Shown here: one piece after another, positions 3,338-56,809 of the stretch
Layout: each line of letters begins with the position of its first letter
Position numbering within the stretch: the first letter of the stretch is position 1
From: an uncultured archaeon
GTDB taxonomy: Archaea > Iainarchaeota > Iainarchaeia > Iainarchaeales > VGJJ01
Direction: 5' to 3'
DNA: 64,000 nt
Assembly: GCA_964480705.1 (NCBI GenBank)
Contig: CAYZPC010000001.1
Coordinates: 31,297 to 95,296, forward strand
The notes under the pieces: model-generated
What the model saw: only the letters and a program-made list of their open reading frames with translations
What the model was told of the DNA's origin: nothing
The model's database searches: none
Position numbers and translations under genes: made by a program

Positions 3338-3358
3338 AACTTTTTGTCAAAAAGTTTG
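3338..3358. repeat. Palindrome AAACTTTTTGTCAAAAAGTTT (member of recurring A5/T5 palindrome family; terminator-like)
   Basis: Near-perfect inverted repeat read directly; sits between the 3' end of the gene at 3416..4399 and the tRNA-Leu 5' end. Confidence 0.6.
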
Positions 3359-3415
3359 ATCAAAAAGCTCTTTGTATCTAAGGATGGGAAACAGATATAA
3401 ACGCCCGCACGCGTT

Positions 3416-4606: not shown

Positions 4607-4804
4607 CAGCCTTTTTACTAAAAAGGCTGATTCGACATCCGGCGGGTCGTCCCCAAGGTGTCGAATCGTCGACACCTTTCTGCTTTTGATTAAACTTTTT
4701 TTCCAGTGGGTGTTGCTTGCAACTCCCATTTCTCGCCACCGTTCATCGAAAGGGGCGTTTACTTCAAGCCCTTGTTTTTTATACCTGTAAACATTCACGT
4801 ATGC

Positions 4805-9849: not shown

Positions 9850-9872
9850 TGAAACTTTTTGAAAAAGTTTCA
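9850..9872. repeat. Palindrome TGAAACTTTTTGAAAAAGTTTCA (A5/T5 palindrome family)
   Basis: 23-bp inverted repeat 2 nt after the ArsR stop codon. Confidence 0.6.
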
Positions 9873-9954
9873 TCAAAAGCCTACTTGGGGATTCTACGAA
9901 TCCCCAATAGTAGTCCGTCCGCGCGGCCGGAGGTTACCGGCCTTAGAAAGAGTA

Positions 9955-10080
9955 AGGCGGGGACGGGTTGGGTTGTCCCCGGCCTTTGGGTTGGTTGGGT
10001 TGTTAGGCAAATTGGGTTGGTTAAGAAGCATCAACGCAGCAACGGCGGGCCATCTTGGTTGGGTTGGGAGTTAAGGAGGC
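9955..10080 (+). repeat. G-rich GGGTTGG/GGTTGG repeat tract (potential G-quadruplex) in a structured intergenic region
   Basis: Nine or more GGGTTGG/GGTTGG units; no ORF on either strand; the 27-mer TCTTGGTTGGGTTGGGAGTTAAGGAGG is duplicated at 10366. Confidence 0.6.
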
Positions 10081-10138
10081 AGCCCACCGCGCTGAGTTGA
10101 TACAATCTTTCTTGGGAAGCATCATTGTGTTTTTTGAT

Positions 10139-10161
10139 AAAACTTTTTTTCAAAAAGTTTT
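10139..10161. repeat. Palindrome AAAACTTTTTTTCAAAAAGTTTT (A5/T5 family) at the stop of the wHTH gene
   Basis: Inverted repeat read directly. Confidence 0.55.
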
Positions 10162-10635
10162 TCGGACGAACACCACCTTTTTTCCGGATTGGATTTTTCC
10201 AAGGTAGCCGGTTTTGACGAGTGCATTGAGTCGTTGCGAGGCCGCGTTGGGATTTTTGTATCCTGCGTGCGTGCGCACCTCTTCGGCGTTGGCTTTTCCA
10301 TTTTTTTCAATGTATGCGAGTATTTTTTGGTCCGCTTCGGGTAAGAGTGAAATCGAATGCAGGTTCTCTTGGGTTGGGTTGGGAGTCAGGGAGGTTCCTG
10401 CATTCGATTTTAGTGCGAGGGATAATTCATCGTATTTTTCTTCCATCTTGGCGAGCAAATCATTCGTTTGCTTGCGTTCTTGAGCAAGTTTGAATAGGAG
10501 CGCGGCGATAATCATGGGGTTATCTTTCCCCGCTTGCATGACATCATTCAAGTCTGCCGTGAGGGTGGAGAATTCGGGGCTAATCTGCTCCATCAAGGCT
10601 TGCGGAGTCAGTTTTCGATAATCACGATTGGTCAT
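10150..10635 (-). CDS. Winged-helix (MarR/PadR-like) DNA-binding protein with N-terminal coiled-coil domain
   Basis: C-terminus ILAYIEKNGKANAEEVRTHAGYKNPNAASQRLNALVKTGYLGKI wHTH pattern. Confidence 0.6.
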   Translation of the reverse strand: MTNRDYRKLTPQALMEQISPEFSTLTADLNDVMQAGKDNPMIIAALLFKLAQERKQTNDLLAKMEEKYDELSLALKSNAGTSLTPNPTQENLHSISLLPEADQKILAYIEKNGKANAEEVRTHAGYKNPNAASQRLNALVKTGYLGKIQSGKKVVFVRKTF

Positions 10636-10640
10636 GCATC

Positions 10641-10659
10641 GTCATGATGGCATCATGAC
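10641..10659. promoter_or_regulatory. Operator-like palindrome GTCATGATGGCATCATGAC abutting TATA box CTATATAAAG in a divergent promoter
   Basis: Perfect 9-bp inverted repeat 6 nt upstream of the wHTH gene start and immediately 5' of a TATA-like box for the + strand gene. Confidence 0.5.
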
Positions 10660-10749
10660 TATATAAAGCTTGCGGGTGGGAAATGCGAAATGCTGCCTCT
10701 CTTTTTCTATGTCTTTATAGTTTTTATAGGTGGTTCCCGTCTGGTTTGA

Positions 10750-18397: not shown

Positions 18398-18469
18398 TGG
18401 ACCCGGGAGGGGTTGAACCTCCGACCTTCGCTGTATAAGAACGCTGCTCTACCACTGAGCTACGGGTCC
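18398..18469 (-). tRNA. tRNA, probable tRNA-Ile (anticodon TAT) with G27.A43 mismatch
   Basis: RC: GGACCCG-TA-GCTC-AGTGGTA-GAGC-A-GCGTT-CTTATAC-AGCGA-AGGTC-GGAGG-TTCAACC-CCTCC-CGGGTCC-A. Confidence 0.6.
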
Positions 18470-42296: not shown

Positions 42297-42306
42297 GTTG
42301 TTGATC

Positions 42307-42329
42307 AAACTTTTTGGTAAAAAGTTTGG
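42307..42329. repeat. Palindrome CAAACTTTTTGGTAAAAAGTTTG preceded by TTGAT (A5/T5 family)
   Basis: 11 nt after the tag stop; near-identical copy at 53261. Confidence 0.6.
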
Positions 42330-53141: not shown

Positions 53142-53260
53142 GTGCAAAAACGGGCGCGGGAAATTTCTTTCCCGCTACCCAATTTGCTGAGGAGATGTTT
53201 CTGGGAAGGGTGATAAAATGCGTCTGCCCCTTTGTGGGGCAATTTTTACTTGTTTTTGAT

Positions 53261-53283
53261 CAAACTTTTTAGGAAAAAGTTTG
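53261..53283. repeat. Palindrome CAAACTTTTTAGGAAAAAGTTTG preceded by TTGAT (A5/T5 family)
   Basis: Near-identical to the copy at 42307. Confidence 0.6.
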
Positions 53284-55531: not shown

Positions 55532-56809
55532 ATGAAAAGTCCGTTTGCTGTCGAAAAAGTTCGTGCTCATTTAGTGTATGACTCGCGTGGCTTCCCCACG
55601 ATTGAGGTTATTGCCAATTCAGGTTCCATTTCTGCCTCCGCCACCGCTCCTGCGGGAGTGAGCAAGGGTCGTTTTGAAGCCCATGATTTGCGCGATGAGG
55701 AATCATTTATGGGAATGGGTGTCCAGAAGGCCATCCGGAATGTGAACGGCCCCATTAATAGTGAACTCAAAGACATGAATGCGGTTGCCCAAGCGGATAT
55801 TGATAAGGCCCTCATTGAGTTGGATGGAACCCCCAACAAGTCAAAATTGGGTGCCAATGCTCTCATTGCCACGTCCATTGCCATTACTCGTTTAGGTGCT
55901 TTGTTGCAAGACAAGCCCTTGTATGAGCACATTCACTCTCTCGCCACCGCGGGAAAGCCCGGAAAGTCTGCTCCCACGCTTCCATTGCCCATGATTAATG
56001 TGTTGAATGGTGGAAAGCACGCTGGAAACGATTTGCCTTTTCAAGAATTTTTGATTACTCCCACGAAAGCCAAGAGCGTCGCAGATGCGATTCAAATTTC
56101 GTCTGAAATTTATCACACCTTGCGCGAGCACGTGGGGAAAAATTTTGATATTCGTGCCACAAACGTTGGAGAGACGGGCGGTCTAGCCATTCCGACGGGT
56201 AGTGTCAACGTGGCGCTGGATGTTATTCTCGCAGCGGCCAAAGAGGCGGGTCATGAAAAACAAATCAAAATTGGTTTGTCAATTGCGGGTTCGCACATGC
56301 GCAAAAAAGGCGCGTATGTTATTGATGGTAAACCCCTCACGCATCGCCAGCTCGTTAATTATTATGTGAATCTCGTCGAGCAATACCCTATTTCAATGCT
56401 CGAGGACCCGTTTGCAGAAGATGATTTGCAGGGTTATCAAGGTTTGATGACGCGCGTGGGAGCGACTCACTCAATTGTGGGGGACGATTTGCTCGTTTCC
56501 TCTCCTACTCGAATTAAGCGCGTGTTGGATTTGAAAGCGTGCAATGGGTTGAACTTGAAACCCAACCAGGTGGGAACCGTTTCCGAAGTGTTGGAAGCAT
56601 TCCACCTCGCGCGCAATGCCAAGTGGACTACCATTGTGAGTGACCGTGCCGGAGAAACCGAGGATTCATTCATCGCTGATTTAGCCGTTGGAATTGGTGC
56701 CGAATATTTGAAAGCCGGCGGAATGGCCCGCTCGGAGCGCGTGGCGAAATACAACCGCTTGTTGCGAATCGAGGAAGAGTTAGGAAAGAAAGCCGTTTTG
56801 AAGAAATAA
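55532..56809 (+). CDS. eno: Enolase
   Basis: Full-length enolase layout with RBS GAGGGTGA upstream. Confidence 0.92.
   Translation: MKSPFAVEKVRAHLVYDSRGFPTIEVIANSGSISASATAPAGVSKGRFEAHDLRDEESFMGMGVQKAIRNVNGPINSELKDMNAVAQADIDKALIELDGTPNKSKLGANALIATSIAITRLGALLQDKPLYEHIHSLATAGKPGKSAPTLPLPMINVLNGGKHAGNDLPFQEFLITPTKAKSVADAIQISSEIYHTLREHVGKNFDIRATNVGETGGLAIPTGSVNVALDVILAAAKEAGHEKQIKIGLSIAGSHMRKKGAYVIDGKPLTHRQLVNYYVNLVEQYPISMLEDPFAEDDLQGYQGLMTRVGATHSIVGDDLLVSSPTRIKRVLDLKACNGLNLKPNQVGTVSEVLEAFHLARNAKWTTIVSDRAGETEDSFIADLAVGIGAEYLKAGGMARSERVAKYNRLLRIEEELGKKAVLKK

Follow-up and report, generated by a model that had tools for sequence, protein, structure and literature searches.

The stretch of DNA analysed here comprises 64,000 nucleotides of contig CAYZPC010000001.1 from an uncultured archaeon of the Iainarchaeia and is referred to below as the window. 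On its minus strand lies a coding sequence (CDS; 10150..10635) for a 161-amino-acid winged-helix protein. An inverted repeat within this CDS (10350-10410) is predicted to fold into an RNA hairpin. The CDS is directly followed, on the same strand, by a structured non-coding RNA or 3' untranslated region (3'UTR; 9945..10149) whose main hairpin, H1, resembles the hairpin in the CDS. The relationship between these two hairpins is the subject of this report.

The CDS was defined by its open reading frame (ORF), its homologs and an AlphaFold2 model of its product. In the model, N-terminal helices span residues 11-79 (one helix covering 40-79), residues 80-96 are disordered (predicted local distance difference test score, pLDDT, <50) and a C-terminal winged helix occupies residues 100-158. 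The codons that hold the hairpin are therefore those of a disordered linker between two domains (K76-S96), in agreement with a first-pass annotation of this DNA, made from the sequence alone, which had placed the element in frame in the linker of this gene. Sequence searches of Pfam, NCBIfam and PDB with the 161-amino-acid protein returned only weak winged helix-turn-helix (wHTH) matches, and Foldseek on the model retrieved generic winged helices of the ArsR/MarR/AspA type; the neighbouring genes give no clue to the function of the protein. All 51 homologs found in databases are annotated as 'hypothetical protein' and come from metagenome-assembled genomes of Diapherotrites/Iainarchaeum. This coiled-coil plus winged-helix family is conserved in Iainarchaeia (Diapherotrites, DPANN). 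The comparisons below draw on 160 homologous loci from genome and metagenome collections, plus six obtained by exact protein look-up. A TATA-like box, TTTATATA, ends 24 nt 5' of the ATG (10636-10680) and no Shine-Dalgarno (SD) sequence is present, so the wHTH mRNA is probably leaderless.

The 13-bp arms noted by the first-pass annotation, AATCGAATGCAGG (10351-10363) and CCTGCATTCGATT (10397-10409), are exact reverse complements, and the pairing runs one base further to give a perfect 14-bp inverted repeat whose arms, AAATCGAATGCAGG (10350-10363) and CCTGCATTCGATTT (10397-10410), are separated by 33 nt. Read as mRNA (minus strand), the 5' arm (10397..10410; AAAUCGAAUGCAGG) encodes K76 S77 N78 A79 G80. 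The G-poor loop of 33 nt (10364..10396; AACCUCCCUGACUCCCAACCCAACCCAAGAGAA) encodes T81-N91 and includes CCUCCC and the core ACUCCCAACC, and the 3' arm (10350..10363; CCUGCAUUCGAUUU) encodes (N91) L92 H93 S94 I95 (S96). A scan of the whole window for inverted repeats (exact seed of at least 10, distance up to 80) recovered it as the sole perfect spaced example, where a rough calculation expects about 0.02 repeats of such size in 64 kb; the annotation had called such a repeat unusual within a CDS. Searching the window with 0-1 mismatches gave no further copy of the repeat arm. Folding of the mRNA, which had been proposed as a check, yields a z-score of -7.0 for the hairpin on the mRNA strand, and the stability of the stem is -20.9 kcal/mol in the window and reaches -34 kcal/mol in orthologs. 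A plus-strand ORF at 10314-10493 likewise reads ...KSNAG...LHSI... because of the palindrome; it is a mirror artefact of the repeat and no evidence for an antisense gene.

The annotation had also stressed a second, intergenic copy of the core with 3 mismatches and a 1-nt gap. This copy is real: positions 10057-10079 and 10372-10394 agree in 21/23 nt (91% identity), and over the wider core match of about 30 nt (10051-10081) the counts are 4 mismatches and 1 gap, close to those given in the annotation. The segment (UGCCUCCUUAACUCCCAACCCAACCAAGAUG, minus strand) is the apical loop of H1, a long conserved hairpin at 10028..10103 (minus) of the same structural family, which is supported by its fold, by profile and covariance-model scores and by covariation. 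A sequence profile of H1 was built from other loci, with the window excluded, and used in an nhmmer search of the whole window. It recovered H1 (E 7.7e-14) and the CDS hairpin (E 1.9e-5), and its sole further match under E 0.1 was a marginal one at 56559-56591 (E 0.019). The profile aligns the CDS hairpin arm to arm, CGgaCGCgGG/CCcGCGtcCG against CGAAUGCAGG/CCUGCAUUCG, and the differences are compensatory transitions. Across all loci it matches these two positions only, each time on the sense strand.

A covariance model, R1, was prepared from H1 of five other genomes only (loci L005, L006, L007, L084 and L166). It matches an entire H1-type hairpin module within the CDS (10345..10415, minus) from end to end (44.2 bits, E 4.4e-10, model positions 1-74) and scores it above the window's own H1 (38.9 bits). 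R1 also matches the CDS hairpins in 18 loci and finds nothing else in the 64-kb window; the search for other copies of the unit that had been suggested thus ended with only the CDS hairpin and H1 in the window, and with none in about 0.43 Mb of distant loci. In the R1 alignment, 88.3% of cells are paired, against 62.4% when shuffled (0/500) and 33-47% with the partner slid, and 19/19 pairs have double changes, with 173 double-change cells against 47.5; these pair counts are favoured by an alignment fitted to the structure, and the shuffle controls overstate significance, the sequences being phylogenetically related. With MAFFT alignment followed by RNAalifold, few pairs or none were recovered for H1 and for the complete RNA, since indels throw the stems out of register; seeding the covariance model with five H1 sequences of near-identical length overcame this problem. 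Matches resembling ACUCCCAACC number 11 in the window, against 2.8 expected. Those outside the two hairpin copies do not fold as hairpins displaying the motif, and neither the profile nor the covariance model detects any of them. In viral contigs, two loop-only 17-mer matches without stems were found on unrelated contigs, at chance level. On this comparative evidence, the CDS hairpin is a paralogue of H1, the main hairpin of the downstream RNA.

Orthologs at 58-93% protein identity share a linker of similar kind and length with a PNPT-like core, so that the alignment suggested by the first-pass annotation reveals no inserted segment. The hairpin is kept in about 18 orthologs (listed as L001-L008, L010-L012, L081, L084, L085 and L161-L166), with differing stems, GAGCACC/GGUGCUC among them. 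In the clade of the window, the inner end of the stem occurs as CAGG/CCUG, CAAG/CUUG, CAU/AUG, CAAGC/GUUUG or CAAAU/AUUUG. A second clade has stems of 16-24 bp, for example GAAUGGAGUGGGUCCC/GGGGCUCAUUCCAUUU, GGGAUGAGCACC/GGUGCUCAUUCC and ...GAGCACU/AGUGCUC..., with several G.U pairs and an additional outer helix GAAGA/UCUUC. The 5' arm of this second clade is displaced by 5 nt and is read T-N-G-V rather than K-S-N-A; it still pairs with the same H-S-I arm.

The native fold was compared with 1000 synonymous recodings per ortholog in 17 orthologs. It was far more stable than the recodings in 13/17 of them (z -2.9 to -5.1, at most 9/1000 as stable), and for the hairpin of the window 5/1000 recodings were as stable. 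The arms and loop core show a synonymous codon difference of 0, against a gene mean of 0.36-0.46, and the 5' arm is free of synonymous variation in clade A. Synonymous variation that broke the repeat would have pointed to chance palindromy; the opposite was observed, with synonymous variation suppressed and pairing kept. Among 144 distinct family CDSs, 23 carry the motif [ACU][AG]AC[CU]CC[CA]A[AC] in the linker, split between two reading phases (16 and 7 CDSs) that yield LTPNP/PTPNP or SNPNT/SNSHT; elsewhere in the 144 CDSs it has 2 matches, and 2 antisense. These observations indicate that the hairpin linker is under selection at the nucleotide level.

The strand on which the structure acts can be judged from the stems. 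Among sense rows, G.U pairs outnumber A.C oppositions 43 to 19, and stems mirrored to the antisense strand are weaker. Motif counts over the whole family were made in 127 distinct loci with flanks. AC[UC]CC[CA]A[AC] has 85 sense and 2 antisense occurrences downstream of the gene, and 26 and 1 in the linker. CCUCC occurs in the 200 nt downstream of the gene in 63/127 loci; the counts for comparison are 6/127 upstream and 9/127 for the complement. A (C-rich)UUUGCC motif is found downstream in 65/127, against 1/127 upstream and 1/127 for the complement. In both hairpins the loop is long, poor in G and rich in C/A, and its core (U/C)(A/G)ACUCCCAACC(C)AACC follows CCUCC or CCUCCC. The downstream RNA has further copies of the motif in the single-stranded segment at its 5' end, between its hairpins and in the terminal hairpin loop. 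In 86/127 distinct loci, sequence bearing the motif is found in the linker or downstream of the gene, and gene and RNA are adjacent and co-oriented in 26/26 close loci. Two related patterns were seen after the stop codon of more distant family members. The sequence YCCUCCUUUGCC, which contains the anti-Shine-Dalgarno core CCUCCU and is usually followed at once by a hairpin, occurs 5-175 nt after the stop across Iainarchaeia (for example in the distant loci L031, L062, L076, L157, L028, L029, L024, L015, L016, L026 and L040). Locus L157 has three tandem repeats of GCCAUGCCGAAAAGAUUCGGCAGAGAUCUGUCGCAUUUCACUGCGUUCAAUGCAACGUGCUUC, a unit of about 70 nt, some 20-240 nt past the stop.

The first-pass annotation had offered two explanations for the repeat, a mobile insertion of a type resembling a miniature inverted-repeat transposable element (MITE), and a programmed RNA structure such as a translational pause or an RNA thermometer. 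The former is contradicted by the presence of the linker in orthologs, by the uniqueness of the arm and by the occurrence of two copies per locus at fixed orthologous positions. The structural part of the latter holds, since compensatory changes are seen and the native fold surpasses its recodings. The specific forms proposed fare less well: nothing points to a thermometer, since the mRNA is apparently leaderless and lacks an SD sequence that could be sequestered, and a simple pause leaves the conserved loop and the paralogy with the downstream RNA unexplained. As far as sequence comparison can tell, the repeat is a conserved sense-strand RNA hairpin within a CDS, neither a mobile insertion nor a product of chance.

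The region downstream of the CDS is common to all close loci as a non-coding stretch of about 170-210 nt after the stop codon. It folds more strongly on the minus strand (z -6.2) than on the plus strand (z -2.5), and it contains several conserved blocks, all given here on the minus strand. Block A (10111..10120), a conserved C-rich 5' single strand with the sequence GCUUCCCAAG and the consensus (A/G)CUUCCCAA, adjoins the stop codon in most orthologs. It is followed by H1, the stems of which vary widely among loci and the loop of which is nearly invariant. The single strand between the hairpins (9987..10020) carries two more copies of the motif, CCAACCCAAUUUGCC and AACCCAACCAACCC (second CCAACC run), and the AAUUUGCC part of the former is invariant across the clade. 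H2 (9954..9986) is a G+C-rich hairpin. Its stem, AAGGCCGGGGAC/GUCCCCGCCUU, closes a loop of 10 nt, AACCCAACCC, and shows compensatory changes (alignment columns 221-224 and 236-239). The U-rich tail after H2 (9945..9953; ACUCUUUCU) is likely the 3' end or termination signal of the RNA, because oligo-T serves as an archaeal terminator.

No known family accounts for this RNA. In Rfam 15, only tRNAs reach the gathering threshold in the 64-kb window. Four weak matches at E<=10 between 9600 and 10800 (12-20 bits, against gathering thresholds of 48-84) were judged to be chance, and seven related loci gave one unrelated weak match at E<=1. A literature search on non-coding RNA in Diapherotrites yielded no description of the downstream RNA. 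A bulge-helix-bulge intron, a K-turn, a C/D box RNA and 5S rRNA were considered and rejected, as the required bulges or boxes are absent from the sequence and Rfam is silent. A scan for sigma-70 promoters and terminators was uninformative, the host being an archaeon to which such a scan is not applicable.

Several observations concern the surroundings of the downstream RNA. The last 30 nt or so of the conserved part of the CDS, GGAAAAAUCCAAUCCGGAAAAAAGGUGGUGUU (K-I-Q-S-G-K-K-V-V-F; 10165-10196, minus), show almost no synonymous variation in 17 orthologs of two clades. Pairing of this segment with the downstream RNA was dropped because RNAduplex partners were inconsistent, and an internal promoter for the RNA was considered as a reason for the invariance. 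Two further hairpins, UUGGGGAUUC..GAAUCCCCAA (9885-9907) and GGCCGG..CCGGCC (9914-9940), lie between the U tract of the RNA and a convergent ArsR-type gene. The former is kept beside the stop of the ArsR-type gene in L005, L006, L081, L084 and L166, and is therefore probably the terminator of that gene. An AT-rich palindrome, AAC(U/C)TTTTT..AAAAAG(T/G)TTNATCAAAA, occurs 6 times in the window, where 0.03 copies are expected (3350-3365, 4684-4699, 9863-9878, 10132-10147, 42299-42314 and 53254-53269), located at gene ends and beside tRNA genes. Elsewhere (L004, L009, L011, L033 and L067) it is inserted at varying sites inside the downstream RNA region, and in the window one copy has apparently entered the wHTH CDS at its 3' end, giving the C-terminus ...VRKTF* (likewise in L004). 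The element may act as a bidirectional terminator or be a small mobile palindrome. Among the tRNA genes, ARAGORN identified at 18398-18469 (minus) a tRNA-Ile with the anticodon UAU, an uncommon way to read AUA.

The layout of the downstream RNA resembles that of certain bacterial small RNAs (sRNAs). LhrC1-5, RsaE/RoxS and RNAIII of Firmicutes are likewise G-poor RNAs with a motif complementary to SD regions of the GGAG/GGGAG type (PMC4132741). The UCCC sites of LhrC-type sRNAs bind G-rich SD regions, and all three sites bind the G-rich SD region of lapB (PMC4132741). The likeness to the LhrC type extends to the placement of the motif in a hairpin loop, in the single strand between hairpins and in the loop of the terminal hairpin, and to a terminal hairpin followed by a U tract; it is a resemblance without homology. 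The present RNA differs from these bacterial sRNAs in its archaeal host, in its longer motif ACUCCCAACCCAACC, in abutting a protein gene like a 3'UTR, and in the additional copy of its main hairpin inside the CDS of the adjoining gene.

sRNAs derived from 3'UTRs or from within genes, such as CpxQ, SroC and the non-coding RNAs generated by decay, and dual-function mRNAs form a second group for comparison. They share with this locus a regulatory module on the transcript of a protein gene and a conserved structured element that overlaps codons; we know of no described case in which a coding-region element is clearly paralogous to a hairpin of the RNA downstream. A third group comprises mRNA structures that mimic the RNA target of the encoded protein for autoregulation, as in the ribosomal proteins S8, L1 and S15, archaeal L7Ae and the MS2 coat protein. 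In the present locus, too, a hairpin in the mRNA resembles the stem and loop of a hairpin in an adjacent partner RNA, except that the protein has a generic DNA-type wHTH fold and the look-alike lies in the middle of the CDS and not at the translation start. MITEs and repetitive extragenic palindromic (REP) elements are comparable, being short units delimited by a perfect inverted repeat and having a related second copy close by. The CDS hairpin is unlike them in having only two copies, at orthologous positions conserved across genera, with no target-site duplication and no empty sites; its stems evolve by compensatory change, and it is in frame and translated.

Taken at face value, these sequence comparisons identify the element as an RNA module for regulation embedded in a CDS, or as a dual-function mRNA, tied to an RNA family not in Rfam. 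For its mode of action, the reading that we favour, with a probability of roughly 40%, is that the conserved CDS hairpin copies H1 and displays its loop to the partner of H1, most likely a G-rich RNA. The stem would present the G-poor, anti-SD-like loop to whichever partner recognises H1, and the likeliest partner would be a G-rich RNA such as ribosome-binding regions of the GGAGG/GGGAG type. RNA-RNA pairing is favoured here because of the LhrC-type layout, the CCUCC/CUCCC in the loops and the SD sequences of the GGAGG type, often GGAGGAA, at 12/56 ORFs of the window, although no particular target stands out. The wHTH mRNA would thus carry one seed of a neighbouring and probably co-transcribed regulatory RNA, as a dual-function mRNA or an intragenic sRNA module; co-transcription is the default assumption because the stop codon abuts the RNA in most orthologs. 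Ribosomes crossing the linker would melt the stem, so that the seed could be displayed only while the winged-helix domain is not being translated.

Several points weigh against this reading. Both the partner and the effect are inferred, pairing between RNAs gives in itself no need for a copy in this particular CDS, and the SD-type complementarity of a short C-rich motif easily arises by chance. Three close orthologs (L009, L013 and L014) have H1 and lack the CDS stem, two of which (L013 and L014) retain the linker motif. The 12 core pairs of the stem are uninformative within the clade of the window because they never vary, and they also encode conserved residues. R1 finds nothing in about 95 more distant loci (about 0.43 Mb), which hold merely shorter hairpins or bare motifs, and the two cautions attached above to the pair counts apply here as well.

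The placement of the copy is better explained if the partner is the protein itself. The winged-helix protein would bind H1 and other copies of the motif in the downstream RNA, as a ribonucleoprotein (RNP) partner or with the RNA as a sponge, and protein in excess would bind the look-alike in its own mRNA, blocking ribosomes at the linker or altering mRNA stability. Protein and RNA would then be an RNP or sponge pair specific to Iainarchaeia, in which the protein controls its own synthesis through an H1 mimic in linker codons, a mid-CDS feedback loop with one motif in two reading phases. Such feedback accounts for the copy being in this gene and no other, and agrees with the strict linkage of gene and RNA in the 26 close loci and of the motif in 86 of the 127. 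The fit of the CDS hairpin to the H1 model from end to end, stems included, is expected of a mimic of a protein-binding hairpin, and the long N-terminal helices suggest oligomers able to bridge several sites. The protein, however, is of a generic DNA-binding wHTH type (ArsR/MarR/AspA) without a recognisable RNA-binding module. The loops are long (about 21-45 nt), variable in length and unstructured, and single-stranded stretches hold further copies of the short motif, a pattern more characteristic of RNA-RNA seeds or of proteins that bind single-stranded RNA. To our knowledge, moreover, known autoregulatory mimics are located in the 5'UTR or at the start site and none in the middle of a CDS. 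We consider such feedback possible, if on the unlikely side. A distinctly unlikely proposal dispenses with any partner: the stable stem of 14-24 bp at the domain boundary would slow ribosomes, in aid of co-translational folding or dimerisation of the N-terminal helices, or would shield the mRNA from exonucleases, and the loop would be incidental. The position of the hairpin exactly in the disordered inter-domain linker, the stem stabilities quoted above and the selection of stability beyond what the protein sequence requires are all in keeping with it. The invariance of the loop core, the two reading phases and the homology with H1 and the other motif copies are nonetheless left unexplained, and L013 and L014 keep the linker motif with no stem to serve.

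Explanations at the level of DNA, and those that deny the repeat a function, fare worse. That the gene product is a wHTH protein invites the view that the repeat is an operator palindrome or cruciform for the encoded regulator, with the downstream GGGTTGGG sites as a binding array. The plus (template) strand, on which GGGTTGGGTTGGGAGTCAGGG is a canonical four-run G-quadruplex motif and G-rich repeats cluster at 9960-10070, might instead form a G-quadruplex. An operator is contradicted by several features: the arm sequences differ among clades though the winged helix is nearly invariant, so that half-sites are not conserved with the domain, and the spacing is neither fixed nor short (arm centres 47 bp apart; spacing between 24 and 45 nt). 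Besides, the G.U pairs of the stem would turn into A.C mismatches in the opposite strand, and likewise in a cruciform. The G-quadruplex was rejected as a conserved feature, since four G3 runs are present in merely 12/21 orthologous linkers, in 1/21 downstream regions and in almost no H1. We regard a DNA-level element as quite improbable. That the palindrome arose by chance, or that a small mobile element with inverted repeats (of MITE or REP type) was inserted recently, is very improbable indeed. K-S-N-A and L-H-S-I do permit complementary codons, a 4-nt CACU is found on both flanks in the window and mobile-looking AT-rich palindromes lie nearby. A repeat expected about 0.02 times per window and found as the only perfect spaced one, a recoding test that contradicts chance, and compensatory changes that keep the pairing across clades argue against both. 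The flanking CACU is not conserved in orthologs, and an insertion was rejected because the arm is unique, the linker is present in all orthologs and no dispersed copies were found in the window or in distant loci.

DPANN archaea are uncultured or hard to culture, and RNA-based regulation in them is almost unknown. The locus described here yields an RNA family missing from Rfam, an RNA of about 200 nt tied to one conserved gene across Iainarchaeia, and appears to be a clear case of a CDS that doubles as a structured RNA module, its motif being kept whether it is read LTPNP or SNPNT/SNSHT. It suggests that disordered protein linkers can host RNA function, and advises caution against treating conserved linker peptides as features of the protein. 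The hairpin and its partner would provide a concrete, testable pair for metatranscriptomics and in-vitro work.

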